Shown here piece by piece: positions 4,501-46,827 of a stretch of 64,000 bases of DNA. The number at the start of each line of letters is the position of its first letter. Positions within the stretch are counted from its first letter, which is position 1. Source of the stretch: Ascoidea asiatica JCM 7603 (lineage: Eukaryota; Fungi; Ascomycota); NCBI GenBank assembly GCA_001600695.1, contig BCKQ01000006.1:136315-200314 (forward strand), in the 5' to 3' direction. Under the pieces are notes generated by a model. The model was not told where the DNA came from. It made no database searches and saw only the letters and a program-made list of their open reading frames with translations. The translations under genes were made by a program, and so were the position numbers.

Positions 4501-6201
4501 AAAAAAAATTTTTGAAAAATTATTATTATTATTAATATTGTTATTTAATTTTGAAAAATCAGAAATAATTTTTGATAAATAATTTAAGAAAATTAAATAA
4601 GAATTTGAAGTTTTTTTAATTAAATTTTCAAAATAATTTGAAATTTTAGTTAAATTAAAATATTGATCATTTTTATAAAATTTAAATAAAATTTTATTAA
4701 AATTTTCTTCATGAATAATTATAATTGAATTTAAAATTTTAAAAAAATCAAAATAAATTTTTGATTCATTATTACCAATTAATTTAATTTTTTTAATTTC
4801 TTCAGTATCTTCATTATCTTCATTATTTTCATTATTTTCTATATTATTATTATAATAATAAAATTTAAAATTTTTAAATAAATTAATTGTAAAAAATTTT
4901 AAAATTTTAATATATTTTTCTTCTCTTTTTATAAGATCATAAATTAAAAATTGTTCTTTATAAATTAAATCTTGATCAATAGAAATAATATTTAAATTTA
5001 TAAATTTATTCCAATGTTCAGACCAATTTTTATTAATTTTAATATTTAATAATAAATTTGGAATTAAATTTTTATAAAATAATTTTGAATTTGAATAATT
5101 TAAAATAATGAGATTAATTTGATTATTAAAATTTTCAATTAATTTATTAAAATTATAATTATAATGATTAAAATTATTATTATTATTATTTAAAATTTTA
5201 AATAATTTTAAATAATTATAAAATTTATTAATTAATAAATCAAATAAAAAATCTTCAAAATTATTAATATTTAAATTTAAATTATTAAATTTAATATTTA
5301 TATTATTTAAATAAATAAATAAATTTGAAATTGAGAAAAAATTAAATTCAAAAATGAATCTATAAGCAGATAAAATTTTAAAATAATTTAATATTAAAAT
5401 TTCATTAAAATTTAACCAATTTAAATAATTATTAAAAATATTTATATCATTGTTTGTATTATTATTTATATAATTATTTAAAGGATTAAGAATAAAAATT
5501 TTAAAATTATTAAAGATTTTAATTAATGGATTTAAAATATCATTTATAATATTATAATTTATTAAATTATTTTCATCAATTAATAATATTGGATTAATAA
5601 TATTATTATTAAAATCATTAATTAAAATATTAATAATATTTAAAGAATTATTATAAAAATTTAAATCATTTTCATAAATTAATTTAATTATTATATTTAA
5701 ATTATTATTATTATAATTATTATTATTATTATTAATTATGATATTTTTTATAGATTTAATGAAATTATTATCTATTGAATATGAATATGAATATGAATAT
5801 AAATTAAGATTTGAATCAATTGAATTATTTGAGATTGAAGAAATTGAAGAATAATTTGTAATTATTGAATTTTTAGATATTATTGAATTATGATTTGAAA
5901 TTATTGAATTATTAATTTTATTTAATGGATTTATTGAATCATTGATTGAATCAATATCATTGATATGATTATTATTATTATTATTATTATTATTGGATTC
6001 ATTATCATCAATTTTTTTAATATCAATTATTGGCGGTTTTCTTCTTAAATTTTTTGAATTAATTTTTGAATTAATTTTTGAATTAATTTTTGATAATTTT
6101 ATAATTGGAGAATTTGGAGAAGTTGGAGAATTTGAATATTCATTATTTGAAGAATTTAAAGATAAATTTTTAATGGCGGTTAAATTTAAAGGTTCAATCA
6201 T
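1534..6201 (-). CDS. Divergent Tus1/Rom-family Rho GEF (two DH-like units, PH-like region, C-terminal CNH-like region)
   Basis: 1555-aa ORF. WSEHW..EQFLIYDLIKREEKYI and WIENW..IQNLIYKCIKFEELFI both resemble the Tus1 DH start (WTEYW..RQSFIFDLI..E). VYLIAFNKFVIAT is PH-like. EYLRLYEDYLII and GIEII are CNH-like. Confidence 0.6.
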   Translation of the reverse strand: MIEPLNLTAIKNLSLNSSNNEYSNSPTSPNSPIIKLSKINSKINSKINSKNLRRKPPIIDIKKIDDNESNNNNNNNNNHINDIDSINDSINPLNKINNSIISNHNSIISKNSIITNYSSISSISNNSIDSNLNLYSYSYSYSIDNNFIKSIKNIIINNNNNNYNNNNLNIIIKLIYENDLNFYNNSLNIINILINDFNNNIINPILLIDENNLINYNIINDILNPLIKIFNNFKIFILNPLNNYINNNTNNDINIFNNYLNWLNFNEILILNYFKILSAYRFIFEFNFFSISNLFIYLNNINIKFNNLNLNINNFEDFLFDLLINKFYNYLKLFKILNNNNNNFNHYNYNFNKLIENFNNQINLIILNYSNSKLFYKNLIPNLLLNIKINKNWSEHWNKFINLNIISIDQDLIYKEQFLIYDLIKREEKYIKILKFFTINLFKNFKFYYYNNNIENNENNEDNEDTEEIKKIKLIGNNESKIYFDFFKILNSIIIIHEENFNKILFKFYKNDQYFNLTKISNYFENLIKKTSNSYLIFLNYLSKIISDFSKLNNNINNNNNFSKIFFNFNNLNNFNELKLSFNYKKKFKFQLPQSSPINFFFEWKNFINLNLSNFIDINKIFLNYSTNHISNYLLDFNQLIIYRNKANSNFDNELQLIFKIKNLLNTFNIELNQIIDLNEKINNNEFKRTNLEFLNFQNLRYKSKIKLKLNWIENWNFNSNFLLSHLTNQSILIQNLIYKCIKFEELFILTWEIFINEILNFFELEFPQSTKELKSLKLNLISKIFNPKRIITLIHKNKLLKNFLKLIIEQMHMINPLDFIKILYLFFKNSQKDYEKIIDKYNELIFIYTLESKKKKNQSALINWINKFNEKIENKNSSISASNYNNKINDIKIFLRNNNLKKFDLKKKIFGTDVIEEFDFYKSQIKNLKGFIKGIPDEFEIIEYSDKIIDICSKMKKLFEISKAKIFINNLELKIFKQDSNLNSNYEFFSNFLSCYLNSKIISKDNKNDPILLEYENIVEKNFSSGIMERNFNDVYLIAFNKFVIATNINFITNKLKILGYITNYSLTFKFTEKTNFQSTVSKRLSLKGTIGSFRGKSKTTTETISSNQYLLNLLQLNNKNFQQSFIFKNEIEKENWNYILRKIIIRNIKLIMKEFKIEFFNSMFKKFERKLLFYNENDKDKKFSSFTYDDMQENLRLLNGLNSQDFKNKFSFGNPKYCQELILNEENYLIIVNDMFTIIKLNKVKGGTKSVKVIKDLVNVKVKKIVIDKTNDKMILLTESGKLIQNKLSDTINGIYNEKILFHKDVIYFRSYGNEFFSIISKSNTISSESSEENKEFKITVYDKEFKDKLFEEVLNKNDVKFAPKIFLTDKIDIITYQNKLYSATFTQVLKLNISLHPSVKKYMTLYKFENVLRSENKDKTKLLQVISLNKSEYLRLYEDYLIIHNIKTNLSSFKYFYTLGKCSQATAKGQNIILESNISGIEIIKLSPIIKAKTDESDKKVYYEIEFDNFYYCKNCKFIGNRSNFEKDEGIYFKCSLFEDETVDLMGFISFT

Positions 6202-16086: not shown

Positions 16087-16806
16087 CTAGATATCAAGGT
16101 ATAAATAAGCTAGATGAAAATCAGTGGATGAAATTATTCCATCTTCTAAAATTGATTTACCTTTATTTTCATCATTTGCCTTTTCAACTTTTATAAAATT
16201 ATCTTTTAATTTCTTAAAATTCAATTTATTTATATAATAATCAACTAATTCATGTTCAACAATAACAACTGCAATAATTCTATTAATTCTATTAATTTTA
16301 TTCTCTTTATTACCTTTCTTAATATCTTCAATTAATAATTTAAATATAAATTTACCACTATTCTTATAATATGAACAAAATGATGTCATTTCAATTGATT
16401 TAATTTCATTATCTTCAACATTATCCTTATATGGTTTATATCCAATAACACTCAAGACATTCTCTTCTTTCAATTCATTCAATTCAATTTCCCCTTCATT
16501 GTCACCATTTATTTCAATTAATTCTACTTCTTCATTTTCAATATCACAATTATCACTTTTATATAAAATATAAATAAAACAATTTTTTTCAAATTTATTA
16601 AATCCTAAATCTTCTAATAAATTTTCATGATTTTTAATTCTATTTGATAAAATTACTTTAAATTTTAAACTTGGTTTTTTATAACCTTTATTAATAATAT
16701 CAATTAAAAATTTTTTTTCATTTTTTTTAAGAATTTTTAATTTATTTAATGAAATTTTAAATAATAATTTTTTTTCACTTTTTTCACTTTTTTCAATCAA
16801 TTCCAT
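16087..16806 (-). CDS. Hypothetical protein, possible divergent GNAT-fold acetyltransferase
   Basis: 239-aa ORF. LIDIINKGY near the N terminus, SGKFIFKLL (motif-A-like) and ELVDYYINKLNFK (motif-B-like, cf. LIxYYxKxGF). Confidence 0.5.
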   Translation of the reverse strand: MELIEKSEKSEKKLLFKISLNKLKILKKNEKKFLIDIINKGYKKPSLKFKVILSNRIKNHENLLEDLGFNKFEKNCFIYILYKSDNCDIENEEVELIEINGDNEGEIELNELKEENVLSVIGYKPYKDNVEDNEIKSIEMTSFCSYYKNSGKFIFKLLIEDIKKGNKENKINRINRIIAVVIVEHELVDYYINKLNFKKLKDNFIKVEKANDENKGKSILEDGIISSTDFHLAYLYLDI

Positions 16807-17415: not shown

Positions 17416-20400
17416 ATGTCAATATTACATAATTCTTCTTCAAAAAATAATTTTAATTATAATATTTTAATGGATCAAATTCCATCAAAAATTTCAAATT
17501 TAAATATAAATACTTTAAATGATAAGAAGGTTATTAATAACAATAATAATAAAAATATTATAGATAAAAAGTCTTTGAAACTAAATAATAATATTATCAA
17601 TAATCCTACTACTAATGATAATAATAATATAATATCTTCATCAAATAAGAAAAAGAAAAAAATTGATTCAAGTAACTCCAAATTTAAAAATCAATTTAAA
17701 AATCAATTGAAAGATAATTCAAATGATAAATTAAATAAAAAAAGTATTAAAAATAATGAAAATTTCGAAAATTTCGAAAATATTGAAAAAAATCAAAACT
17801 ATGAAAATAATTATGATTACGAATATGACTATGAATACGAATATGATTATACTTATGATTATGATTATGAAATTGATGATAATCAACAAATTTCAAATAT
17901 TATTAATTATCAATTAAAAAGACATGAAATTTTATATAAAATTTTAAAAATTGATCAAATTAATGATAATTTTTTATTTCCAAATGAATTAAAACAAAAA
18001 AAATATCAAAATCAACAAAAAAGACAACCTAAACAATCAAAAGAGCCTAAAAAAACTAATGAATCAAAAGAATCTAAGGAACTTAAAGATATTAAGGATA
18101 AAAAACATAAAAAAGATAAAAAAGAATTTATTAATTCCAAAGATTTAAACGAGTCAAATGATTTAAAACATTTAAGAGATTTAAAAGACTTGAAATTGAA
18201 AGACTTAAAAGAACTAGAAGAATTAAAAGATTCAAAAGATCCAATAGAATACAAAGACTCAAAAGACCCAAATTTATCAAAAGACTCACATGAACCTAAA
18301 GATTCAAAAGAATTTGAAAAAGATAATAAAAATAATATAAAAACAGATTTTCATAGTAGATTAACCTTTAAAAAATTCTTCTCAATTCTAATTTCATTTT
18401 CAGATAGAATAACTCAACCTATGAATGATTCTTTGAATTATAATTTATCTCTAGATTTAATTTCAAATTCTTTTATAAATTTAATTTTACTAAATTATTA
18501 TAATGATAAAAATGGTAATCAAAATATTAATGAAAATGATAAAATTTTATATAAATTCGATTTAGCTTTTAACTTAGCTAAAATTATTGAAAAAATTATA
18601 ATTTTTTTAAAATGTTATAATCTAGATTTAATTCAATCAATTGATGTATTTTATGAAGAAAATTTAAATATTAATATTAATAATAAAGAAGATTTATCTG
18701 AATTTGTAATGATTAATAATTTTGATGATCAAAATTTATCAAAATTAATTTCAATTTATGATTTAAATTTATATAATGATTGGCTACCCTCAAAACATTT
18801 GAACTCAAATGATTTACAAATTATTTATTCTATTCTATCAATTTCAATTTATTCAATTTCAAAATTATTTAATTTTAATCAAAATGAAAATCCTTTTATA
18901 TTTATTTTTTTAAAATTATGGAAAATGTTCTCATCTGTATTATATATATCTTTACAAATTGATCGTAAAAATGAAATTTTAAAAAAAATCTCAATTGGCA
19001 CTCCAAATATAATTAGAATTGTAACCAAAGGTTCTTCTGCAATTAGATATATTCTTTCTTCAATTTTAAATGATGATTTCATTAAAAGAATTCATGAATT
19101 TAATCATTTAAGTTTAACTGTATTTTTTTCACCAATTGCAAGAAAAAATTTATCTGGTGCTTTAAATTTAAATAATGATCAAATTATTCAAAATTTGATC
19201 AATTTAGGTTATGATAAATTAGAAATCACTGAATTTATTAATGATTTAGAGCAAAATGATGAATATGATGAAGATGTTAAATATATGTTTGATTATGAAG
19301 AGAGTGAACTTGAAGAATTAATTAATGAAGGCTATCAATCTGAAAGTGATTATGAATATGATTTTAATTTAAATGACCCAAATCATACTATTGATCCTAA
19401 TCTTAGTCATCATCATCATAACCATAATCATAAACATAATCATCATCATCATAATCATTATCATAATATGCTTAAACATAATGTTAATGATAGTCAATGT
19501 ATATTTTATAATAAAACTCATAATCTCGATATAGTAAATAATGATGAAAATGAAAAATCTTTAGAAATAAATATCAAGAACTCTCAGGATAATACCTTTC
19601 ATGATGAAACCGAAAATGATGCAGATAATGAAGAAGAAGAAAAAGGTGAAAGTGATAATGAAACTGAAGAAAATGATAAAAATGTATATATCGATCATTA
19701 TTTCAGATCTGCTAATGTTTATACAGAATGTAATTGTGAGTTTGAAGAAGATTATTATGATGAAGAAGAAGATGAAGAAGATGATGATGATGATGACGAA
19801 GAAGAAGACGAGGAAGAGGAAGAAATCGACAATGATGAAACTGATAACAACGACGACAAAGTAAAGAAAGGAAAAATTATAATTATGGGAAAGAATGAAA
19901 TTCAATCTAAGCCTGAAGAAGAAATTGAATCATTTGAAAGTTTTATTGAAAGACTGGATGTAAATAGAATAACATCAATTTATAATAGAATCAAAGGTAT
20001 CAATACTGATGATATTACCACTAACCAGGAAGAAAATGAAGTTAAAAAACAAGAAGATGAAGATGATGATAGTGAGTTTGCTTTTGATTTTGAGTTTCCT
20101 GAATTGACAGGAAAACTCAAACATTCTGGAAATCTGTTTTTAAAATTAATAAAAGAATTAAGTAAGAAACAAAAAAAAGAACAAGAGAAAGAAAAAAAGT
20201 TGAATGAGAAAAACATTCAAGTAATTAATCAGAATCGGGATGATAATGACAATGAGAATGAAAATGTAAAGGAAAATAGTAATAAAAATATTAGTAGTAA
20301 TACTAATGACAATATAATTTATGAAGAGTTTGATAGAACAATAACTAATATTAATGACAATGAAACTTCTAATATTCATATTGATAATAATTGTGAATCA

Positions 20401-22188
20401 TTAATTAAAGAAGAAAATTCTGACTCCACAATAAATAACACGCCTACTACAAGTAGTAACTTCAATAATTTTGCTAATTTCAATAGCAATAGTGTTAATA
20501 ATAATTTAACCCCAAATACCATAAGTAGCAGTAATATGAATAGCAATTTTAATCAAGAGGATATAATATTCGATTCAAGAAGAAATAATAATTGGATTGA
20601 TGAACCAAGAGGTATAAATATATTTTTTAATATTGATGTAGTTTTAGAAGATAATATTTGTGAAACATGGAATGAATTAGTTTCAATTTTTGAAGTCATG
20701 TCAAAGGAATCAGTAAGTGATAAAATCTGTGAAAGAGCTATATTTACAGTTGCTAATTGTGTAAGAGAAGAACAAGAAATTAAATTAAAACATGCACTAC
20801 TAAATATCAAAGGAACAGTTATTGGTGAAGAGGAAGAAGATCAAGATGAAGATGATGAAAATGATGAAGAAGATGGTGAAGATTATGAAGAAGAAGGCGA
20901 TGAGGAAGAAGAGGATGACGAAAGCAATAACGAAGGAGATGATATTTTAAATGCATTAAATGGTAACTTTAAGGGTAATTTCAATAGGCATTTCACTCAA
21001 GAGATTAATACATCGAATAATGGACATTTCAACAATAATATAAATAATAATGAAAAGAATAGTAGAAATACCAATACTGGTATTGAAAATAACAAAACCA
21101 ATAACAATAATGATAATGATGAAAATAAATCGGTCAATCATAATGATATTAATAATGATAATGATAATAGTAATAATACTAATGAAGATGATGATAAAAT
21201 TACTACTGAGAAAATATATGAATTATGGTCATATGAATGGATATTCGAGCCTATATTAAGATATAATTCTGAAGCAGCTTGTTGTATGATGGATGAGATG
21301 CTAATGGCAGAAGGTTATAGAAGACCTTTAATCTGGTTTTTAACACACTTAGAAATTTCCCAAACATTAGTTAATTATATTCATGAGTTAGTTATTGGAA
21401 TTAGAGGAAATTATAATAAAATAAATAAAGTTAAAAGAGAAGAAAATGAAAACGAATATGAGTTTGGAAATGGGATTGAGGATGAATTTGAATTTGATAA
21501 TGATTATGATTATGAAGATTATGAAAATGAGAATGAAACTGGTAAAAAGAAAAATAAAAATAAAAATAAAAGTAAAAACAAAAATAAGAATTTAAATTTT
21601 AGTTCTAATCAAAATAAAGATAAGAATAAGAATAAAGGCAATGGGAATAATTGGAAAAGAAAACAAAGTAATAGAAGAATACCTTTTTCTAGAGAAGGTA
21701 TTGTTGAATTAACAGAAATTGAAATTGAAATGTTATTACATGAATTTTTTTCTAATGCAGCAGTTTATTTAAATAGAGCCATTGAACAAGAATCTTTAGA
21801 TAATAACGATAATTTCAATGGAGCAGATAATTTCAATAAATTAAATTCAAATAATAATTTAAAAATAAATTCTAATAAAATTAATAGAAAAAATAATAGA
21901 TCAAATAGGTCATCAATCTCAGAAAGATCAATAGGCTCAAATACTTTCAATTTCAATTATAATTTTAATTCTAATTCAGAACATGGATTTCGAAATATTG
22001 CTACTATATCCGATTGTCGAAAATTAATGATTGTTATATGTTTGATGATAAAATCATTAATCAAAGAAAAAATCATAAATTTAAATGACTATAAAATTGA
22101 ATTAGAGATATTATTGATCGATTGGGTAGGTAGATTGCCAGAAGCTAGAGAATTATATTTCCCCATAAAAAATGGTAATTTGATCTGA
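17416..22188 (+). CDS. CAF130: Caf130-like CCR4-NOT-associated protein with a CNOT11-like C-terminal domain
   Basis: 1590 aa. C-terminal RKLMIVICLMIKSLIKEKIINLNDYKIELEILLIDWVGRLPEARELYF resembles the CNOT11/Caf130 C terminus. Conserved-looking block GSSAIRYILSSILN..PIARK..GAL. Long acidic, Asn-rich and His-rich inserts. Confidence 0.62.
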   Translation: MSILHNSSSKNNFNYNILMDQIPSKISNLNINTLNDKKVINNNNNKNIIDKKSLKLNNNIINNPTTNDNNNIISSSNKKKKKIDSSNSKFKNQFKNQLKDNSNDKLNKKSIKNNENFENFENIEKNQNYENNYDYEYDYEYEYDYTYDYDYEIDDNQQISNIINYQLKRHEILYKILKIDQINDNFLFPNELKQKKYQNQQKRQPKQSKEPKKTNESKESKELKDIKDKKHKKDKKEFINSKDLNESNDLKHLRDLKDLKLKDLKELEELKDSKDPIEYKDSKDPNLSKDSHEPKDSKEFEKDNKNNIKTDFHSRLTFKKFFSILISFSDRITQPMNDSLNYNLSLDLISNSFINLILLNYYNDKNGNQNINENDKILYKFDLAFNLAKIIEKIIIFLKCYNLDLIQSIDVFYEENLNININNKEDLSEFVMINNFDDQNLSKLISIYDLNLYNDWLPSKHLNSNDLQIIYSILSISIYSISKLFNFNQNENPFIFIFLKLWKMFSSVLYISLQIDRKNEILKKISIGTPNIIRIVTKGSSAIRYILSSILNDDFIKRIHEFNHLSLTVFFSPIARKNLSGALNLNNDQIIQNLINLGYDKLEITEFINDLEQNDEYDEDVKYMFDYEESELEELINEGYQSESDYEYDFNLNDPNHTIDPNLSHHHHNHNHKHNHHHHNHYHNMLKHNVNDSQCIFYNKTHNLDIVNNDENEKSLEINIKNSQDNTFHDETENDADNEEEEKGESDNETEENDKNVYIDHYFRSANVYTECNCEFEEDYYDEEEDEEDDDDDDEEEDEEEEEIDNDETDNNDDKVKKGKIIIMGKNEIQSKPEEEIESFESFIERLDVNRITSIYNRIKGINTDDITTNQEENEVKKQEDEDDDSEFAFDFEFPELTGKLKHSGNLFLKLIKELSKKQKKEQEKEKKLNEKNIQVINQNRDDNDNENENVKENSNKNISSNTNDNIIYEEFDRTITNINDNETSNIHIDNNCESLIKEENSDSTINNTPTTSSNFNNFANFNSNSVNNNLTPNTISSSNMNSNFNQEDIIFDSRRNNNWIDEPRGINIFFNIDVVLEDNICETWNELVSIFEVMSKESVSDKICERAIFTVANCVREEQEIKLKHALLNIKGTVIGEEEEDQDEDDENDEEDGEDYEEEGDEEEEDDESNNEGDDILNALNGNFKGNFNRHFTQEINTSNNGHFNNNINNNEKNSRNTNTGIENNKTNNNNDNDENKSVNHNDINNDNDNSNNTNEDDDKITTEKIYELWSYEWIFEPILRYNSEAACCMMDEMLMAEGYRRPLIWFLTHLEISQTLVNYIHELVIGIRGNYNKINKVKREENENEYEFGNGIEDEFEFDNDYDYEDYENENETGKKKNKNKNKSKNKNKNLNFSSNQNKDKNKNKGNGNNWKRKQSNRRIPFSREGIVELTEIEIEMLLHEFFSNAAVYLNRAIEQESLDNNDNFNGADNFNKLNSNNNLKINSNKINRKNNRSNRSSISERSIGSNTFNFNYNFNSNSEHGFRNIATISDCRKLMIVICLMIKSLIKEKIINLNDYKIELEILLIDWVGRLPEARELYFPIKNGNLI

Positions 22189-23140: not shown

Positions 23141-26100
23141 ATGAATCTCCAACCGAAGTATCAACAACAAATTCAATCCCAACAATCAAATCGATATATC
23201 TTTCAACAACAAATTCATACAACTACTCAATCTCAATCTCAATCTTTAACCACAAATGAACTTTTCATTCAACATCAAAGACAAGAACAACAACAAAGAC
23301 AAGATTTACAACAGTTACAACAAAGACAACAAGATCAAAATATCAATTTAAATAATATTAATAATTTATCAAATTTAAACAATATCAATTTAAATAATAT
23401 TGGTAATTTAAATAACTTAAATAATAATAACAATAATAATAATATCAATAATTTATCAAATTTGAATAATTTAAATAACTTAAATAATTTAAATAGTTTA
23501 CCAGGTTTAAATAATAATTTGAATAATTTAAATTTAAATAATTCGAATAATTTAAATAACTTAAACTTAAATAATTTAAATTTGAATATTGATCCTTCTT
23601 CAAATGCTTTAAATCAATCTATTCATTATCATCAACAACAGCAACAAAATATTCAACAACAATCTTCTCCAATCTTTCAAAATTCAATCAATCCTTTCCT
23701 TCAAAAATTACAACAATCCCAAGCTCAAGCTCACGCTCAAGCTCAAGCACAAGCACAAGCACAGGCCCAAGCACAGGCTCAAGCTCAAATACAAGCTCAA
23801 GCTCAAGCTCAGGTACAAGCTCAGCAGCAATTACAACAACAGCAACAGCAACAACAGCAACAACAACAACAAAATATTGATATATCCCCAGCTACTCAAG
23901 CTCAATTAAGAATCCAAAATCAAATCAACAACAATAATAATAATAACAACAATATAACTTCTTCAAATATTAACCCATTACCTATAGGCACTAATAATAA
24001 TATAATCTTCCAATCCCAATTATCTCCTCAATTATTTACTTTACCTGCTGCTAAAAAACAAATAATTATCCAATTAGATACACTTTACTCTCAAACTAAT
24101 TATTGGAAACAACAAAAGCAATTAATCAATGAATCAAGACAAAACTTAAAACCTCATATTTATGCAAAGCTGGATGCATTTAAAGGTGGACAATTTGATT
24201 CAATTAAAAATATAAATAATATTAGTAATAACAACAAAAGTGCAAAAGATAATACCATTAACAATAAAATTGATAACAATGATACTAAAGAAAGTATTAT
24301 TACATCTCCCAATAATAACAATAATAGTAGTAGCAGTAATAATAACGCTAATGGAAATAATAATAATAATAATAACATAGATGGAAGTCCTATAAACAGA
24401 GCTTTGGCTAATTCTAATTACTGCTCTTTAGTTGAATTAACAAAAGATGCTTTAGATAAACAAGCAGAACTGGACTACTCTAATGCTAAGAAACAAAATA
24501 ATAATATTAACGGTTCTGGTAATAACAATAATGGTACTGTTAGTTCAACCGTTTTAATTCCACCAAATAGTAATGCAATGTTTAAGAAAAAATCTCATAA
24601 TTTAGATGATGAAGAAATTTTAAAAAAACAAAGAATGAAAGGCCCCGCAACTAATAGAATTCATGTTAATCCAAATCAATTATGGGCTTCTTTAGATTTA
24701 AGTGGTCAAGGTACAATTAATATTTCAAGAGATTTGTTTAAAAATTATAATTTTTTAACTAAATTATTTTTAAATAATAATCATTTAAAAGCTTTACCAA
24801 AAGAAATTTCAAATTTAAAAAATTTAAGAGTTTTAGATTTATCAAATAATACTTTAAGTGATTTACCAAAAGAATTAGGTTTATTATTTAATTTAAAATT
24901 TTTATTTTTATTTGATAATAATTTAACTAATTTACCTTATGAATTTGGTAATTTATTTGAATTAGAATTCTTAGGTATTGAAGGTAATCCAATGGATATA
25001 AATTTATGTAAAATTCTAGCAGAAAAGGGTACAAAGGGTTTAATTTCATATTTAAGAGATAATAAACTAACTTTAAATCCACCAAAACCAAGAAAATGGA
25101 TTGAATTATCTGATGATGGAGAAATTTTAGAAGAAAAAGAATTTGAAAATGATGAATCCAAAATCTCAAAATTAAATCCAGATTTAGATCCAATCTCAGA
25201 ATTAGATAATAATTATGAAAAGGAATTTTTTTCAGTTACAAGTTATAATACTTTATGTCAACATTATGCAACACCAATGATGTATGGATATACTCCATCA
25301 TGGGCTTTAGATTGGAAATATAGATTGGATCATATGGAAAAAGAAATTTCAAAATTTGATTCAGATATATTTTGTTTACAAGAACTTGAAAACAGAACAT
25401 ATGAAGAATTTTGGGTACCATTAATGGAGAAAAAAGGTTATAAAAGTTTATTTTGTTGTAAAACAAGATACAAAACAATGTCAAATATTTCTGCAAAAAA
25501 AGTTGATGGATGTGCAATTTTTTATAAAACAAGTAAATTTCAATTACTTGATAAAGTTAGTATAGAATACAACGCTTCACTTATGACACATAATAATTTT
25601 CAAAAAACAGAAGATGTATTTAATAGATTTATGAATAAAGATAATGTTGCTTTAGCAGCATATTTTTTACATCTTCATACAGGAAATAGAGTTATTGTAT
25701 CTAATACTCATTTACATTGGGATCCAAGTTTTAATGATGTTAAAGCAATGCAAGTTGCAGTATTATTAGAAGAATTAGAAGGATTAGTGCGAAAATATAA
25801 TAATAATAAATCTTCAAAAGACTCAATGAATTCAATTCCAATAATTATTTGTGGAGATTTTAATTCAAAAGTTGATAGTGCAGTTTATCAATTATTAAGT
25901 CAAGGTAGAGTGGTTAATCATGATGATTTAGAAGGTAGAGATTATGGTAGATTGACAAATGATGGATTCACACAACCATTTTCATTAAGATCAACATATG
26001 ATAATATTGGAGAGTTACCTTTTACAAATTGTACACCAAATTTTATGGATGTAATTGATTATATATGGTACTCAACACCTACATTAAATGTTAAAGGGTT

Positions 26101-26272
26101 ATTAGGTAAACTTGATGAAGAATATATTGAAAAAGTAGTTGGATTTCCAAATGCAGATTTCCCTTCAGATCATATACCATTAGTTACAAAATTTGGATTT
26201 AAAAAAAATAAGAATTCTATGATAAATTCTAATATTAATAATAATGGATTAAATAAATCAAGAAAAACATAA
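23141..26272 (+). CDS. CCR4: CCR4-NOT deadenylase Ccr4 (LRR + EEP nuclease)
   Basis: Q/N-rich N terminus; LRRs starting WASLDLSGQG; SYNTLCQHYATP, CLQE, NTHLHWDP, CGDFNS, IDYIWYS and PSDHIPL catalytic motifs. Confidence 0.97.
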   Translation: MNLQPKYQQQIQSQQSNRYIFQQQIHTTTQSQSQSLTTNELFIQHQRQEQQQRQDLQQLQQRQQDQNINLNNINNLSNLNNINLNNIGNLNNLNNNNNNNNINNLSNLNNLNNLNNLNSLPGLNNNLNNLNLNNSNNLNNLNLNNLNLNIDPSSNALNQSIHYHQQQQQNIQQQSSPIFQNSINPFLQKLQQSQAQAHAQAQAQAQAQAQAQAQAQIQAQAQAQVQAQQQLQQQQQQQQQQQQQNIDISPATQAQLRIQNQINNNNNNNNNITSSNINPLPIGTNNNIIFQSQLSPQLFTLPAAKKQIIIQLDTLYSQTNYWKQQKQLINESRQNLKPHIYAKLDAFKGGQFDSIKNINNISNNNKSAKDNTINNKIDNNDTKESIITSPNNNNNSSSSNNNANGNNNNNNNIDGSPINRALANSNYCSLVELTKDALDKQAELDYSNAKKQNNNINGSGNNNNGTVSSTVLIPPNSNAMFKKKSHNLDDEEILKKQRMKGPATNRIHVNPNQLWASLDLSGQGTINISRDLFKNYNFLTKLFLNNNHLKALPKEISNLKNLRVLDLSNNTLSDLPKELGLLFNLKFLFLFDNNLTNLPYEFGNLFELEFLGIEGNPMDINLCKILAEKGTKGLISYLRDNKLTLNPPKPRKWIELSDDGEILEEKEFENDESKISKLNPDLDPISELDNNYEKEFFSVTSYNTLCQHYATPMMYGYTPSWALDWKYRLDHMEKEISKFDSDIFCLQELENRTYEEFWVPLMEKKGYKSLFCCKTRYKTMSNISAKKVDGCAIFYKTSKFQLLDKVSIEYNASLMTHNNFQKTEDVFNRFMNKDNVALAAYFLHLHTGNRVIVSNTHLHWDPSFNDVKAMQVAVLLEELEGLVRKYNNNKSSKDSMNSIPIIICGDFNSKVDSAVYQLLSQGRVVNHDDLEGRDYGRLTNDGFTQPFSLRSTYDNIGELPFTNCTPNFMDVIDYIWYSTPTLNVKGLLGKLDEEYIEKVVGFPNADFPSDHIPLVTKFGFKKNKNSMINSNINNNGLNKSRKT

Positions 26273-27416
26273 ATTTCAAATAAAATTGGTTTAATTAAAT
26301 AAGTAAGTAAATAAAATTTTTGTTGTTTTTCATTTTAATTTCTTTTATATGTATCCTTATAGTATTTTGTTGTTGTTTTACTGAGTTCTGCTGTTTATTG
26401 TAATTTTGAGAATTAATTATTTATACTTCTTTTATTATTTATTTATTTATTTAATGAAATATATGATTAATTAATTGATTAGTTAATTGATTTATTGCTT
26501 TCTTTGATAAGCTTTTTCAATTTATTTTTCTTTTTGTTTAATTTTAGTTTATTTCTAGTTAATTTTTTTTGTTCAATTTTTATTTAATTTTTTGTTATTC
26601 TTATTCAAATTTTTTGATTCTAATTTTTTTTTATATTCAAAGTTCTTCTTTATCTTTAGCATTTTTTTGCCTTTCATTTTATTCAATATTTATAAATACT
26701 CTTTTATAATAAAGAGCTAAAATTTAAAACTTATTCTGAAATTTGTAGGACCAAATCTAAAGAGTTTTCGTCAAATTCAACTAAAAAAAAAGATTTGATA
26801 AAGATATTTCAAAATAAAAATAGATAAAATCTACTAATTAGCTTTTTTCTTTCAACAAATCGTCTAATTGAATTAATTAAATAAATTCACTCAGTCAGAA
26901 GCCTTTATCGTCAAGAGCATCAAAAACTTCTTTTTTTCCTTTGATATTCATTTTTTTTTCTTTTCTTTTGGGGGTCTAGAATACCATATTCATTATCAAC
27001 TATCAATTCTAAAGATTCTGTTCAATTATAAATCAAGATTAATTTCTCTTTTTAAAGAGCTGAGGCTTTTAAAGAATGTATCGAATTTAAGATTCTCCAA
27101 AAGGTTAACTTAAGTTAAATTTAGAGATTTCAAAACCCGTTTAAAAGTTGCAAATCTCTGCCAAACATCTACTGTAAATCTGATTTGAGAATACTTTTTT
27201 TTTGCCCTTTCTTGGTATTTGCATTCGGTGAATCAAATCTCAAAGTGATAAAAAGTTGAAAACTTTGCTGGTTTTGTCGGTTTTTAATCACAGATTCAAA
27301 AACATTTCAAAAAAGATGTTTTTTAATGAAAAAAAAACATTCAATAAAAAAAGAATTTCAAAATTACACTGAAAGCAGAACTATGCAAAGTGATACCTAA
27401 ATATGTATTTGAAATC

Positions 27417-27460
27417 CCGTAATTACGGAAACGGCAAATGATCTGGTCGGATACTTCCGG
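27417..27460. promoter_or_regulatory. Cluster of CGG-triplet (Zn2Cys6-type) sites upstream of the repeat precursor gene
   Basis: Perfect palindrome CCGTAATTACGG at 27417-27428, CGG-N3-CGG at 27426-27434 and CGG-N6-CCG at 27448-27459, in otherwise CG-poor DNA. Confidence 0.4.
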
Positions 27461-28625
27461 AACTCGTTCATTTCCAAACTTTGTTTGCTTTGGCGCTTTG
27501 GCGCTTTGTGAAGAAATTGACGTGTTTTGACTTTTTGATGAATTTATCTTAAATAAAAAAATTTAACGAAATCAAATGAAGAATTCAGTTGAAGAAATTG
27601 AATAAAAAATTCAATTAAAAAAATAAAAGAAGGATATTAGAAGAGTAATTTCTAAGCATGAGCTTATTGATGGCTAGTTCAAAATGTGAAGTACAATTAT
27701 TACCAACTGTAAATTTTTAAAATCTGAAAGTGAGTGAGTACTTCTCTGTTTTGGACTATTTTTAAAATAGTCAAAGCATTGAAAATCATCCCAAACAGAA
27801 ACGTTGTTACTTTCAACAATTAATAAAAGAACCAGTAGTCTAAAGTAGTCGCCTTTATTTTGGTGTTGATAATTTTACAATTGATTAATGAAACTGTTTG
27901 GCAATTTTTCAAATCTGATTCAACGAAACTTACGCCATTTTACGATATTCAATTATTATTAAAATATTATTCAATTATTTAATCCAATCTTTCTTATTAT
28001 TCAGGTTTCATTAACAACATAATTATGAAAAAAAGTTAAGTTGTTGAGTACTTTGTTGTATTTTATGAATGAATTTAACTTGGCATTATTCATTAATTAA
28101 AAAATTGCTTAAATTGTTGTTACTGGAGTATTCTCATATTGATTTTAAATCCCATTTGGAATTAAATTCTTTTTTCTAAAGTTTCAAATAATATCAATAT
28201 CATCTAGTACTGGTACTGGAAATTGTAAATCAATATTAGGTTAAAGGATAATTTTTAATACTTACTACCGATAATATTAAATTTATGCTAATTTATTATC
28301 GACTTTTTTCTTGCTTAGAAATATTACTTAAAATTTGAAAATTCTGAGATCAGTATAAAAATGTTCTCTTTTCTTCCAAATTTTGAATCAATTAATTTTA
28401 ATTCTTTTTCTTTTAATTACCTATATTTTATTAATTAATTAATTATATCTATTACTTAATTATCTTTAGCTTTATTCTGTTATATTATACTTTTATAACT
28501 ACTCAAATATTTATATTTATTATCAAAAATAACTATAATATTTACTATACTAGTCGTTCCTTACACACTTCAGTTTCTCTTTTTCAATTATCTTTTATTT
28601 AAATAATTTTCAAACAAATTTAAAA

Positions 28626-29954
28626 ATGTTCTCAAAATCAATTTTATGTGCTTTAGCTTATGCTTTACTTGCAACAAATGCTGCTTATTTCTCAAGTGGT
28701 GACTATGCTTCAATAACTGAAGTTAAACCAACAAAAAGTTTCGGTGGTTCTGAAATGGGCTCCGGTGTTCCTCAACAAAATTCAAAAATGGGCTCCATTG
28801 GTGGTAACTTCAATCAAAATCATTCTGGCTCATTCATGGCAATTCCAAGTGATTCATTTGGTGGTGATTTTGCCCCTGCTGCTGTTGAAAGTGGTTCTTT
28901 TGCCGCCATGCCTTCTGGTTCTAGTTCTAATTTTGGTTCAGGATCTGGATCTGGTTTTGGCTTTGGTTCAGGATCTGGTTCTTTTGGTGGTAAAAACCAA
29001 GGTGGTAAAATGAACTCTGCAATGGGTGGTGCTTTCTCTCAAGGTGGTATGGCTACTCAATCATTTACAATGGCAACTGCTTCTTTTGAACCACAAGTAT
29101 CAGGTGGATTAAGAAAACGTGCTTTTGAAAGTGGCTCCTTTGGTGGTGCTATGCCTTCTGGAATGGCTCAAAAATCTGGTTCTTTTGGTAATGCAATGGA
29201 ATCTGGAATGCCCCAACAATCAGGCTCTTTCGGTGGTCAACAACAAGGTGGAAATTTCGCTGCAGCTGCCTTTGAAAGTGGTTCAATGGGTGGTTCAATT
29301 CCATCAGGAATGCCTCAACAATCTGGTTCTTTTGGTGGAAAAATGGGTGGATCTCATCATAGTTTTTCATTCGGTGATGCAATGCCTTCAGGTATGCCAA
29401 ATCATTCAGGTTCTGGTGAACATTCTTTCGGTGGTGAAATGAAATCTGGTTCTTTTGGTGGTGCAATGCCAACTGGTTCTTTTGCTGCTCAACCTTCTGG
29501 TGGATTAAAAAAACGTGCTTTTGAAAGTGGTTCGTTTGGTGGTGCTAAACCATCAGGTATGCCTGAACCTTCTGGTGCTTTTGGCGGAGCTATGCCATTA
29601 GGTATGAAAATGCATTCTGGTTTTGGCGGTGCTATGCCTTCTGGTATGCCTCAACACTCTGGTTCTTTTGGTGGTGCAAAACCAAGTGGTGAATTCTCAA
29701 AAGGTGCTATGCCAACTGGTTCTTTTGCTGCTCAACCTTCTGGTGGTTTAAAGAAACGTGCTTTTGAAATGTCTGGTTCTTTTACTGTTGTTCCAACTGC
29801 TTCTTTTGGTTCTCCATTGATGGGTGCAAAACAAAGTGGTTCTCCAAATGGCCACCAACATAAAAATGGAAATCATTCTAAACAAATGAAATCCGAAGCA
29901 ACTCCATCTTTTACTGCTCCTTCGGGAATGGCTTCTGGAAATTATTTATTTTAG
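28626..29954 (+). CDS. Secreted Kex2-processed repeat protein (KEP-like precursor), G/S/F/M-rich
   Basis: Signal-peptide-like MFSKSILCALAYALLATNA; three GGL(R/K)KR|AFE sites (Arg at residues 165, 297, 378); recurrent SGSFGG and GAMPSG units; no TM segment or GPI tail. Confidence 0.8.
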   Translation: MFSKSILCALAYALLATNAAYFSSGDYASITEVKPTKSFGGSEMGSGVPQQNSKMGSIGGNFNQNHSGSFMAIPSDSFGGDFAPAAVESGSFAAMPSGSSSNFGSGSGSGFGFGSGSGSFGGKNQGGKMNSAMGGAFSQGGMATQSFTMATASFEPQVSGGLRKRAFESGSFGGAMPSGMAQKSGSFGNAMESGMPQQSGSFGGQQQGGNFAAAAFESGSMGGSIPSGMPQQSGSFGGKMGGSHHSFSFGDAMPSGMPNHSGSGEHSFGGEMKSGSFGGAMPTGSFAAQPSGGLKKRAFESGSFGGAKPSGMPEPSGAFGGAMPLGMKMHSGFGGAMPSGMPQHSGSFGGAKPSGEFSKGAMPTGSFAAQPSGGLKKRAFEMSGSFTVVPTASFGSPLMGAKQSGSPNGHQHKNGNHSKQMKSEATPSFTAPSGMASGNYLF

Positions 29955-30465: not shown

Positions 30466-31035
30466 ATGGGAAAACTAGAATATCCTGTTAACAAAGAATA
30501 TCCAAAAGCTGTGGTTTTTGATTTAGATTACACGCTTTGGCCTTGCTGGTGTGATACTCATATTCAAACTCCAGTTAAAATTTTGGATCCCAAAAAAAGA
30601 GATTGTATTATTGATAGTTCTGGTTTTGAATTGGCGTTTTATAAAGATGTTCCTGAAATAATTGTCCACTTAAAAGAGAAAAATGTCAAGATGATTGCAG
30701 CTTCAAGAACCTGGAGACCTGATATCGCTAAGAAAATGTTAAGATTACTTCATGTCAATGGTTCTCCTGCGATTGACTTTTTTGATGAATTAGAATGGGG
30801 AGAACATACAAAAACTATTCATATTAGTGAAGCTTTGAAATCTATAAATAAAAAGGGTTCTAAGGAAGAAGAGATCACTTTTAAAGACGTTGTTCTTTAT
30901 GATGATGAAAGAAGAAACTTGGACGTGGAAAAAGCTGGTATTCATTTCGCATATCTTCCAAATGAAGATGAAGGACTAACAAAGAAATTATTCATAAAAG
31001 GAATCAATGATTGGTATAAAAAAAACAAAGCCTGA
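30466..31035 (+). CDS. Magnesium-dependent phosphatase 1 (HAD family, YER134C/MDP-1-like)
   Basis: VVFDLDYTLWP, AASRT, KTIH and LYDDERRN motifs. Confidence 0.92.
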   Translation: MGKLEYPVNKEYPKAVVFDLDYTLWPCWCDTHIQTPVKILDPKKRDCIIDSSGFELAFYKDVPEIIVHLKEKNVKMIAASRTWRPDIAKKMLRLLHVNGSPAIDFFDELEWGEHTKTIHISEALKSINKKGSKEEEITFKDVVLYDDERRNLDVEKAGIHFAYLPNEDEGLTKKLFIKGINDWYKKNKA

Positions 31036-42973: not shown

Positions 42974-45900
42974 ATGATTCAATCTACTGCTTTTTTCGCT
43001 CTCATTTTTAGTTTTATCAATATCTTTTATTTTGCAATATCCTTAAATTCAAACACTGCATCGGCTTTCATTCAAAACATTAACAATAACAATAATAATG
43101 ATAAAAATAATGATAATGATAATGATATTTCAATATCCATAGATTCTTTGGATCCAGGTGATGGAGATCCTCAAATAACAACAACTGTGATTGATTTATT
43201 ATCTAGTAATGCTAATTTCAGTTCTTTTTTAAGAGTACTTCAAAGAAATAGACTAATACCAATTCTAAATCAAATGTCTAATATAACTTTAATTGCTCCA
43301 ACTAATTCAGCTTTTCAATTATTTAATGAAGATAATGAAGAAAATGAAGATCAATTAACTTCAAGTTATTTTGATCTTGATTTATTTAAATTTCAATTAT
43401 CTGATTTAGATCAATACCTTATAAATCAGACTATATTCTCAAATAATTATACTGGTATAAATATTTTTGAAACTTTATATTCTTCAAGTAATATTGATGA
43501 TATAAATCATATATATAATCCAATAATGTTCAATATTGGAAAAAAAGAATTAAAAATAAATAATGCTAATGTTGAATATGCTGATTTATTCGCAGATACT
43601 CAGAATTCAATTGTTCAAGGTATTGATTCATTTTTAAATCCTTTAGATGATTTTTGTCAATCAATAGTAAACATAAATGAAAATATCAACGGAGATATCA
43701 AAGAAAATATTTCGACTTTCATACAATTCTTAATTAAAAAAAACTATTGTAATTATCCTAATTCAATCAATGATAATAATAATAATCAATTTCAAACTCA
43801 ATTGAATACAAATGTATCAAATATTACAGCAATTATTCCAATTGATGATTCTGTTCCTTTTAATCAAGTTGAATTAAATTATCTTTTAAATACTTCTTAT
43901 GGTGAAAAAGATTTTAATTATTATATAAATAATTTCATATTCAATGGTTATATAGGAGGTAATTTAAATCAAAATCATAATCAAAATCGAGGTTTAAGCT
44001 TATTCAATAATTTTAATAATGAAAAAATCTTAATTAATTCTTTAAATTCTGGTAATCAATTTTTAATTCAAGATAATTTCAAAACTTTTAATTCAAATAT
44101 TTTATCAAGTAATGGTATTATTCATTTAATCGATAATATATCATATTCCTATAATAATGAAAATTTATTAAATTTTAATCCAAGAAAATATCTTTATGGT
44201 CTTGATTGTTCTGATTTTGTTAAGGAAATTGATTTTAGAGGATTTTCTAAATTTATTAATGATTCTTCATTACCTCAAACAATATTTGTAACTACAAATA
44301 ATAGTGATGATGATGAAGATGATGATGCTTATAATAATAAAGAAATGAATATCAGAACTTCATCATCAGTAAATAATTTACTTTATCATTTTGTTGATGA
44401 ACAAATTTTTGAATTAAAATCAGGTATTTATAATACAAAAGTTTGTAATAATAAAAAATTAGGTAAAAATTGTCAAAAATTAAAAATTAAACAAATTAAT
44501 AATGATAATTATATTATAAATGATCAACTTTTAATTGATAATTCTCAATATAAACAAAGTATAACAACAATAAATAATACAACAATATATTTAATTGATC
44601 AAGAATTAACATATCCAAATTCATTAGCATCATCAATTGGATCATTTATAAAATGTTCAAGATCTTTAAAATATTTAGATCAATTAAATTTATTAAATTT
44701 AAATTCAAATAAAATTGGATATACAATTTTTTTACCATGTTTTACATCATGGTCATCATTAGATTTAACATTACAATATCTTGAAAAAAATTTAACAGCA
44801 TTAAATTTAATTATGAAAAATTCAATAATTAATGGATTAATTTATAGTGAATATGATGAAAAAAATTATTATACAAATTTATTAGATGAAATTATTGAAA
44901 TTAAAAATATTAATAATTATTGGAAAGATAATATTGAATATAATATATTATCAATTGGAGAAAAAGAATTAAAAGTTGAAAAATATTCAGATATAATTTT
45001 TAATCAAGGAGTTGTTCATCCAATTGAAGATATTTTATTTCCAAATTCAGTTGAAGTTTCATTAATAAATTTAATTAAAACTACAGAATCTTTTAATACA
45101 TATCCATCATCAGATTTTGTTGATTTATTATATAAAACTAATTTAAGTTATGTTTTAGAACCTGAGAATAATTTTTCATTAATTATACCTAATCATTTAT
45201 CATTAATTAATTCAAATATAACAATTGAATCAGATTATAATTTTTTAGAAATTTTTTTAAAATTACATATATTACCAAATTCCGAAGATAAAAAAAATTC
45301 AATATTTAATTGTGATGAATCAATACCAATACCAACATTATTAGAAGGAGTTCATTTATCATGTAGATTATTAACAATTAATACAATTATGTTACAAATT
45401 ATTGAAGGTACAGATCATGAGGTAAGAGTCTTAAATAAAGGTTGTACAACATATAATAATGAAAGTTGTGTATTTGTAATTGATAGGCCAATAAATCCAG
45501 AATGGTTGAATAGAGATAAATATCCAATTCATTTACCAATTGCAGCTATGGGACTTGGAATTATTTTAGGTATAGTTGGTATAATGATAATTCTTTTAAC
45601 ATTTTTATTTTTTTTAATTGGAAAAAATAAAAAAACTGAAAATGATGAAGAATCTAATTTTATCACTAATACTAATTCCAATTCTAATTCTAATAGTAAT
45701 AATAATAATAATAGTAATAGGAACAAGAGTAGAAATGGAAATGGACTTAGGATTAATGATAGTAATCATCTCAATGATAATGATAGTATTCATACAGAAA
45801 TCAATAATCCTTCATCACCTACACAAACGATTGATAGTTCAGGACTTCTTGAAAATAGTGATCAATATAATTATGGTAGTATTAATAATGTTGGTACAAG

Positions 45901-45988
45901 TTCAAGAAAAAAGGGAGGAATTGATTTATTAGAAAATGGATTGTTAGTTATAAGGAATAATTCTGAACTCAATCTACCTACAGTTTAA
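42974..45988 (+). CDS. FAS1 (fasciclin) multi-domain type I membrane protein, YLR001C-like
   Basis: Signal peptide; TVIDLLSS..FSSFLRVLQR..TLIAPTNSAF; SNGIIHLID and QGVVHPIEDIL FAS1 motifs; single TM near the C terminus followed by KNKK. Confidence 0.85.
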   Translation: MIQSTAFFALIFSFINIFYFAISLNSNTASAFIQNINNNNNNDKNNDNDNDISISIDSLDPGDGDPQITTTVIDLLSSNANFSSFLRVLQRNRLIPILNQMSNITLIAPTNSAFQLFNEDNEENEDQLTSSYFDLDLFKFQLSDLDQYLINQTIFSNNYTGINIFETLYSSSNIDDINHIYNPIMFNIGKKELKINNANVEYADLFADTQNSIVQGIDSFLNPLDDFCQSIVNINENINGDIKENISTFIQFLIKKNYCNYPNSINDNNNNQFQTQLNTNVSNITAIIPIDDSVPFNQVELNYLLNTSYGEKDFNYYINNFIFNGYIGGNLNQNHNQNRGLSLFNNFNNEKILINSLNSGNQFLIQDNFKTFNSNILSSNGIIHLIDNISYSYNNENLLNFNPRKYLYGLDCSDFVKEIDFRGFSKFINDSSLPQTIFVTTNNSDDDEDDDAYNNKEMNIRTSSSVNNLLYHFVDEQIFELKSGIYNTKVCNNKKLGKNCQKLKIKQINNDNYIINDQLLIDNSQYKQSITTINNTTIYLIDQELTYPNSLASSIGSFIKCSRSLKYLDQLNLLNLNSNKIGYTIFLPCFTSWSSLDLTLQYLEKNLTALNLIMKNSIINGLIYSEYDEKNYYTNLLDEIIEIKNINNYWKDNIEYNILSIGEKELKVEKYSDIIFNQGVVHPIEDILFPNSVEVSLINLIKTTESFNTYPSSDFVDLLYKTNLSYVLEPENNFSLIIPNHLSLINSNITIESDYNFLEIFLKLHILPNSEDKKNSIFNCDESIPIPTLLEGVHLSCRLLTINTIMLQIIEGTDHEVRVLNKGCTTYNNESCVFVIDRPINPEWLNRDKYPIHLPIAAMGLGIILGIVGIMIILLTFLFFLIGKNKKTENDEESNFITNTNSNSNSNSNNNNNSNRNKSRNGNGLRINDSNHLNDNDSIHTEINNPSSPTQTIDSSGLLENSDQYNYGSINNVGTSSRKKGGIDLLENGLLVIRNNSELNLPTV

Positions 45989-46320: not shown

Positions 46321-46396
46321 GATACAATAATTATGATTGTTATAACCAGTAAAGAACAAAAACCCTTATGAAACTAGCAAGAATAAGGGCAAAAAA

Positions 46397-46468
46397 AGCT
46401 CACTCCCAGGTTCGAACTAGGGACCAACAGATTTGCAATCTGCTGCGCTACCACTGCGCCAAGTGAGC
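46397..46468 (-). tRNA. tRNA-Cys(GCA), intronless
   Basis: Reverse complement GCTCACTTGGCGCAGTGGTAGCGCAGCAGATTGCAAATCTGTTGGTCCCTAGTTCGAACCTGGGAGTGAGCT: paired acceptor stem, A and B boxes, GCA anticodon, oligo-T terminator at 46391-46396. Confidence 0.98.
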
Positions 46469-46827
46469 TGGTTTTATGAAAAACATGGATTTGCATATTT
46501 GATACACTGCAACCACTTATCACGTGAGCTTATCTCATTGAATAGTATTTTATGGTTTTCTTGACTCAAATTTGTCTTTTTTTGCTTCTTGTGAAACTGA
46601 AGTAAAAAGTAATGAAATACAATAGAATCAATTACTGGGGCAAAGAGGCTACAGAAGTTATTAAAATAATAAAAAGTATTAATCATTAAAGGGGTTTATA
46701 ACTAGAATTCATAAATAAATATAACAAAAATAAATATAACAAAAACAAATATAATACAAATATAATACAAATATAATACAAATATAATACAAAAAAAATA
46801 CAAAAAAAATACAAAAATAAACACCAA

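Follow-up and report, generated by a model that had tools for sequence, protein, structure and literature searches.

An open reading frame (ORF) in a 64,000-nucleotide stretch of the Ascoidea asiatica JCM 7603 genome (contig BCKQ01000006.1; hereafter the window) raises two questions: would its repeat-rich product be secreted and cut by Kex2, and what might the released chains do? A preliminary description of the locus had proposed a novel family of secreted peptides, released from a precursor built of SGSFGG and GAMP(S/T)G units, that could self-assemble or act as signals or toxins.

Gene structure and genomic context

28626..29954, + strand: single-exon ORF encoding the 442-residue precursor (DNA matched by contigs of runs X1-X3)
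26273..28625, no strand: upstream region of 2353 nt, the longest among 20 intergenic gaps in the window, with a TATA-like site at 28354

The ORF has an A at position -3 and an in-frame stop upstream, and an overlapping or antisense gene is ruled out by 11-28 stops in each of the remaining five frames of 28626-29954. Neither an intron donor nor a branch motif was found in the 2.35 kb 5' of it. The gene is free of CTG codons, so that alternative yeast codes leave its translation unchanged; in the window as a whole CTG occurs nine times, no more rarely than CCG, ACG or GCG, and use of the CUG code cannot be judged from it. The gene is no assembly artefact, since overlapping contigs of the DNA runs X1-X3 (which may be the window's own source and are not independent samples) span it at single-copy depth without any listed substitution, and the 38-nt piece common to the two 67-nt copies described below is covered at about twice that depth. 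At 80% likeness, the matches listed for these runs include no second long contig for this gene. In metagenome run X4, one 206-nt contig (depth about 3) matches the gene start, 28617-28822, with zero differences, which is too little for habitat inference.

The window has a very high AT content and densely packed genes. The ORF is flanked by a CCR4-like gene (23141-26272) on its 5' side and an MDP1-like phosphatase gene (30466-31035) on its 3' side, the latter followed by DOT1-like and MEC1/ATR-like genes, all named from their Pfam domains. GC at third codon positions is 0.03-0.23 in all 21 ORFs, i.e., the AT drift is window-wide. As had been observed before, the precursor escapes the accompanying drift towards Asn, Ile and Lys, which make up 9.5% of it versus 22-50% of the 20 other ORFs (at least 120 residues). 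It had also been called unusually Met- and Phe-rich; this holds for Met (31 residues, 7.0%, versus 0.3-2.8%), whereas Phe, at 8.8% versus 2.7-8.7%, is hardly unusual.

Codon use, expressed as NNT/(NNT+NNA), is 0.72 in the precursor gene, 0.77 in the pyruvate kinase gene and 0.48 in the MEC1-like gene. Together with the longest upstream gap this hints at strong, conditional expression, of the kind that a structural product would need, although the codon bias is inflated by internal copying and is not independent evidence. The upstream region contains no Rfam match, none of 24 promoter motifs is enriched in it (lowest fraction 0.06), and no Ste12-type, Mac1-, Zap1- or AP1-like site was found.

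Elsewhere in the window, three ORFs lack a Pfam match: one of 1590 residues at 17416-22188 (+), acidic and Asn-rich (threshold E<=0.01); one of 1555 residues at 1534-6201 (-), with 43.5% Asn+Ile+Lys and local GC down to about 9%; and one of 239 residues at 16087-16806 (-), rich in Lys, Glu and Asn. A second candidate surface protein, of 1004 residues, is encoded at 42974-45988 (+); its N-terminus is hydrophobic and it contains four fasciclin stretches. The sole tRNA gene found within the window is tRNA-Cys(GCA) at 46396-46469 (-).

Predicted secretion and released products

28626..28682, + strand: predicted signal peptide, residues 1-19, cut placed by eye after Ala19 (hydropathy peak; AlphaFold2 helix)
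28683..29120, + strand: predicted product F1, 146 residues, one sequon, diverged duplicate of F2 (F1/F2 score 174, versus at most 112 in 200 shuffles)
29121..29516, + strand: predicted product F2, 132 residues, one sequon
29517..29759, + strand: predicted product F3, 81 residues, copied from the second half of F2 (score 273, versus at most 91.5 in 200 shuffles)
29760..29951, + strand: predicted product F4, 64 residues, one sequon, no anchor, like F3 only at its start (score 45.5; best shuffle 53.5)

The N-terminus fits its earlier characterisation as signal-peptide-like. It carries Lys4, a hydrophobic core from residue 6 and Ala at -1; its 11-residue Kyte-Doolittle mean of 2.55 is the maximum of the protein, the top 19-residue hydropathy windows all start within residues 1-8, and AlphaFold2 models a single helix in the precursor, at residues 4-21 (pLDDT 85 over residues 1-10). 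The predicted product sizes agree with the earlier values of about 145, 132, 81 and 64 residues, F1 having 146 residues with a signal cut after Ala19 and 145 with one after Ala20. Three of the products would start with AFE(M)SGSF, and F1 also aligns with F3 (score 126; best shuffle 94.5). Past the signal there is neither Cys nor Trp (the only Cys is residue 8, and the precursor has no Trp), and NHS sequons are present at residues 65, 259 and 416, both as reported previously. The reported lack of a GPI or transmembrane tail was likewise confirmed by hydropathy: no hydrophobic C-terminal GPI signal was seen (mean hydropathy of the last 15 residues, 0.31), and the best 18-residue window in the products reaches only 0.84. 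F2 and F3 contain no Tyr, the pI of F3 and F4 is 10.0 and 9.4, respectively, the ten His of the precursor lie in small clusters, and Thr accounts for 2.7% of it; no catalytic domain is seen in the sequence. Every feature listed in the preliminary description was recovered in place, the Phe enrichment being modest.

All four products are hydrophilic by calculation (GRAVY -0.33 to -0.51), with 12-25% Gly, 4-11% Pro and 16-23% Ser+Thr, and the longest runs free of Gly and Pro measure 14, 9, 5 and 11 residues in F1, F2, F3 and F4. AlphaFold2 assigned no secondary structure past the signal (pLDDT below 50 for 408 of the 442 residues) and no fold to F3 when the gene's own modules served as alignment (pTM 0.11), low confidence of this kind being no proof of disorder where real homologues are lacking; FoldIndex was slightly positive (0.05-0.13). 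A beta-solenoid fold was considered and found no support in these models, which lacked real alignment depth. The gaps between Phe/Tyr residues have a coefficient of variation of 0.61 versus 0.91 in shuffles, i.e., 99.86% of 5000 shuffles space them less evenly, but any 15-residue repeat brings such evenness with it, so it is not independent evidence.

Repeat structure

29130..29702, + strand: core array of the 15-residue repeat (looser copies at 28890, 28974 and 29772)
28866..28898, + strand: module joint without KR linker, DFAPAAVESGS, residues 81-91 (DNA repeat family D10)
29253..29285, + strand: module joint without KR linker, NFAAAAFESGS, residues 210-220 (DNA repeat family D10)

Both units named in the preliminary description occur (SGSFGG seven times; GAMP five times, on four occasions followed by S/T-G), but they are halves of one 15-residue (45-nt) repeat with the consensus SGSFGGAMPSGMPQx and not separate units. 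The self-identity of the protein peaks at lag 15 (0.283; the maximum at any lag in 500 shuffles was 0.252), and the DNA shows repeated spacings of 45 nt. In 13 hand-picked 15-mers, positions 1-5 are conserved in 11-13 of the copies, with drift in the tail. The 15-mers are nested in modules of about 81 residues that start at residues 86, 166, 215, 298 and 379, F1 being an older copy of F2. The linker QPSGGLKKR, or a variant of it, is present at three of the five module joints, and the other two run directly from FA(P/A)A into (A/V)ESGS; cutting at every module is therefore not required.

Dibasic sites and the likelihood of cleavage

29100..29129, + strand: predicted Kex2 site 1, SGGLRKR/AFE
29496..29525, + strand: predicted Kex2 site 2, SGGLKKR/AFE
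29739..29768, + strand: predicted Kex2 site 3, SGGLKKR/AFE
29460..29526, + strand: 67-nt copy A
29703..29769, + strand: 67-nt copy B, three synonymous differences from copy A

The three dibasic sites are present in the context reported before, SGGL(R/K)KR/AFE, and end at residues 165, 297 and 378 (Arg codons at 29118, 29514 and 29757). They hold all four Arg of the protein; there is no Arg elsewhere in the 423 mature residues and no other basic pair. In shuffles of the mature chain, at least three KR arose in 32 of 100,000 and at least two LxKR in none of 200,000, figures that take no account of the sites being copies of one ancestor. Such an ancestor is indicated by the P1 Arg codon, which is CGT at all three sites (CGT is used 15 times among 343 in the 21 ORFs), so that all three derive from a single copy and cannot be counted as independent observations.

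All three sites have Leu at P4, Lys at P2, Arg at P1 and Ala at P1'. Leu at P4 is named as preferred for Kex2 in PMC8528282 and scored only 0.09 in the Bader matrix (PMC2515848). According to the latter source, cleaved sites are enriched in small P1' residues, and cutting works best where the site is exposed; it also describes a Pir4 mutant left unprocessed after a change of KR/D to KR/A, and one third of the predicted Kex2 substrates that remained uncut. Kex2 itself was reported in all but three of 250 surveyed fungi (PMC6339444). Since Kex1 took off only Arg from candidalysin (PMC5784256), the products may end in Lys instead of SGGL. Taken together, the signal-like start and three LxKR sites make secretion plus Kex2 cleavage of the precursor fairly probable, in keeping with the earlier prediction of a Kex2-type, multi-fragment secreted precursor that has no identifiable relative.

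The cleavage cassette had been described as constrained, as its two 67-nt copies differ only at synonymous positions. This observation is correct (3 of 67 positions, all synonymous), and three silent changes out of three have a probability of about 0.016 with boundaries chosen after the fact; they show only that the protein stretch is kept. Between sites 1 and 2, pN is 0.03 and pS 0.25 in the 16-codon core, versus pN of 0.45 and 0.27 and pS of 0.32 and 0.52 in the ungapped flanks. In a strict 10-codon core, however, the advantage is not significant, with 9 of 10 residues identical versus 24 of 39 for the flanking codons (p=0.13, Fisher test). The core also shows fewer silent changes (1/9 versus 8/24), so recent copying or conversion explains the cassette equally well. 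The pattern is thus suggestive of constraint, weakly so, and the data do not separate selection from recent copying.

Searches for relatives

No relative of the precursor was identified. A whole-protein search gave no match at E<=0.001 among 7995 scored candidates of 243-774 residues, and a profile of the three sites gave none at E<=10 among 1561 candidates from longer proteins. The same profile had two matches in 1.84 billion representatives (E 5e-4 and 1e-3), both rejected: one is an AMPTGSYH octamer repeat, the other a leucine-rich-repeat protein without a KR site. Pfam and PDB yielded no match, the best match in the ESM Atlas (0.77) is unnamed, and residues 270-395 searched alone gave nothing usable. 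The 98 pattern matches of a metagenome scan came from one locus, a bacterial operon in which 17 residues match by chance. The earlier remark that the repeat matches no characterised protein is consistent with these results, and no known wall or spore protein emerged as a homologue. No description of the 15-residue repeat was found in full-text searches of the literature, a result on which the sequence lists of the KEP (Kex2-processed repeat protein) surveys may bear. Such blanks weigh little because close relatives are absent from the databases and low-complexity scoring loses distant kin: none of six window proteins is present in a 15-billion collection, and even the MDP1-like neighbour has a best match only 58% identical, its named matches being budding yeasts, which places the window in that group. 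Orphans are also common among KEPs, of which 2560 of 7878 stand alone (PMC7329392). With one gene in one organism and no homologue, the term family, as used in the preliminary description, is not warranted.

Comparison with known systems

A signal followed by KR-separated repeats is, as had been recognised, the layout of KEPs, including Ece1 and Rep1, and the architecture is to that extent not novel. Among the features by which Le Marquer 2019 (PMC6339444) delimits KEPs, the precursor has at least four fragments at KR/RR (146, 132, 81 and 64 residues from three KR sites), at least three similar fragments over at least 15% of its length (3 x 81/442 = 55%, similarity being taken from pairwise alignment in place of FIMO) and, by hydropathy windows, no transmembrane segment past its signal-like start. 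Umemura 2020 (PMC7329392) allows no piece above 100 residues, a limit that F1 (146) and F2 (132) exceed. In contrast to typical KEPs, the fragments are long, unequal and internally repetitive, and the repeats cross joints with and without KR. In Saccharomycetes, the latter survey counts only 1.35 KEPs per strain, mostly alpha-factor. The precursor may best be classed as a long-fragment, low-complexity variant of Kex2-processed repeat proteins.

Rep1 of Ustilago maydis (PMC3133707) is the best precedent for Kex2-cut structural surface peptides: both are pre-pro-proteins with Kex2 sites and repeat-derived, Cys-free products (predicted here). The Rep1 peptides are amphipathic amyloid formers of 34-53 residues, whereas the present chains are hydrophilic, broken by Gly and Pro and 64-146 residues long, and no sequence match was found. 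The Candida albicans Ece1, CA0365 and Ops4-like precursors (PMC2515848, PMC5784256) resemble the precursor in having several Kex2 sites and a lineage-restricted sequence; unlike Ece1 with its candidalysin (PMC5784256), it has no long hydrophobic peptide (best window 0.84), a Gly/Ser/Phe/Met low-complexity body and no detected homology. Alpha-factor precursors consist of short, near-identical peptides with Ste13 spacers and an MF_alpha domain, none of which is found here. Dikaritin RiPPs have a DUF3328 neighbour and short Tyr cores, whereas the 21 ORFs include no DUF3328 gene and F2 and F3 are Tyr-free; the survey in PMC7329392 reports no dikaritin-type precursors in Saccharomycetes.

Two other groups share composition or processing with the precursor. 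Pir/Hsp150 proteins are yeast wall proteins that are Kex2-cut, Ser-rich and repeat-bearing. Kex2-type sites (predicted here) and Ser-rich repeats are common to both, but the precursor lacks the Pir internal repeat and the four-Cys C-terminal domain, and has several sites, not one. GPI wall proteins end in a hydrophobic signal, which the tail of the precursor (0.31) does not resemble. The repeats of FG nucleoporins, which are intracellular, combine Gly/Ser spacers with aromatic stickers. Prion-like domains (PMC8638251) and FG nucleoporins share with the precursor Gly/Ser spacers, even aromatics, low charge and the lack of a predicted fold; they are intracellular, uncut and unmannosylated, and the likeness is one of composition only, no FxFG/GLFG-type homology having been detected in Pfam or PDB.

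Possible functions of the released chains

By established pathways, the precursor would very probably enter the ER through its hydrophobic N-terminus, and its chains would be N- and O-glycosylated. Given secretion, it is quite probable that Kex2 would cut in the late Golgi and Kex1 would trim some or all of the basic tail, releasing four chains of 64-146 residues predicted to be disordered. These may associate through evenly spaced Phe, together with Met, and so build a soft, hydrated surface coat or matrix on the cell, which is what hydrophilic, unfolded products broken by Gly and Pro and evenly dotted with Phe fit best. If the preceding steps hold, such self-association with a structural surface role has slightly better than an even chance, a judgement from composition only; the whole sequence of events, from secretion to a soft coat of glycosylated, floppy chains, is favoured tentatively and falls somewhat below an even chance. 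It may be speculated that cutting, which would divide 38 Phe into chains with 14, 12, 7 and 5, tunes when or how the material sets. In prion-like domains, even aromatic spacing is associated with liquid-like assembly and clustering with solids (PMC8638251). A more specific version, in which Kex2 sets the length of FG-like sticker-and-spacer chains that form an extracellular condensate or hydrogel (e.g., an adhesive, slime or spore sheath), is considered unlikely. O-mannosylation of Ser/Thr could also mask the stickers, keep the chains soluble and dampen assembly.

Alternatively, the chains might be a soluble or loosely wall-bound, O-mannosylated filler that does not assemble, in which the sugars do the work and cutting is partial or incidental; this is regarded as rather unlikely. 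Yeast O-mannosylation does favour unstructured regions (PMC4824858), the precursor contains 21% Ser+Thr and three sequons, and incidental cutting would agree with the copying of all three sites from one ancestral site, the two joints without KR, the core-versus-flank p of 0.13 and the block to processing that KR/A can cause (PMC2515848). The confinement of Arg to the sites and the low pN of the core argue the other way, as does a precursor with little Thr and neither GPI tail nor Pir repeat. Mucin-like proteins of the wall tend to be anchored and rich in Thr. Rep1-like cross-beta amyloid fibrils that render the surface of the cell or hypha water-repellent or adhesive appear quite unlikely. [GS]F[GSA] occurs 20 times, resembling aromatic-rich kinked segments. 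Such segments form labile fibrils. The layout is shared with Rep1 (PMC3133707), fungi restricted to yeast growth have been suggested to lack hydrophobins (PMC13514795), and Gly+Pro (28%) lies below that of elastomers, in a qualitative comparison with the plot described in PMC5424786. Nevertheless, the chains are longer than the amphipathic Rep1 peptides, have no 18-residue window above 0.84 and a Gly or Pro every few residues, their aromatics are evenly spread and not clustered, and AlphaFold2 predicted neither strand nor solenoid. Of the self-assembly (amyloid, hydrogel or coat) proposed in the preliminary description, self-association of the products is hence retained as a possibility, and amphipathic, Rep1-like amyloid is weakened by composition.

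The other role proposed there, that of a pheromone, signal or membrane toxin comparable to alpha-factor or candidalysin, is very unlikely. Alpha-factors constitute most KEPs of Saccharomycetes (PMC7329392), three products would have a common start, F3 and F4 are basic, and deletion of KEPs in a mushroom left axenic cultures without a phenotype, which suggests roles in interactions (PMC9769878). However, the products are unequal, 64-146 residues long and Cys-free, no X-Ala/X-Pro Ste13 spacer follows KR, no MF_alpha or other Pfam domain matches, there is no hydrophobic or amphipathic stretch to compare with the 24-residue hydrophobic region of candidalysin (PMC5784256), and neither a DUF3328 gene in the set of 21 scanned ORFs nor a Ste12-type site upstream was found. 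Most improbable is an extracellular methionine sink that scavenges oxidants, binds Cu/Ag or stores nitrogen and sulfur: the 31 Met, the clustered His and codon use like that of a highly expressed gene would suit it, but MxM occurs once and MxxM not at all, the upstream region has no Mac1-, Zap1- or AP1-like motif, and the Phe pattern and cut sites would be left unexplained.

Implications

To our knowledge, nearly all characterised budding-yeast KEPs give short pheromones or toxins. Judged by its sequence, the precursor combines a known layout with unusual cargo, namely, long, patterned low-complexity chains, in a group where KEPs are scarce. If correct, a precursor of long Phe/Met-patterned low-complexity chains would widen KEPs to structural materials, and since the size limit applied in the larger KEP survey excludes it, counts of such genes may be too low. 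Should the chains not gel, the precursor would be one more orphan secreted repeat protein. If they gel or condense once cut, they would offer a simple and genetically accessible example of convertase-controlled phase behaviour outside the cell, and a Cys-free protein material expressible in Pichia or baker's yeast. The locus would then encode a secreted low-complexity material tuned by a protease, unlike either the amyloid repellents or the short KEP peptides.
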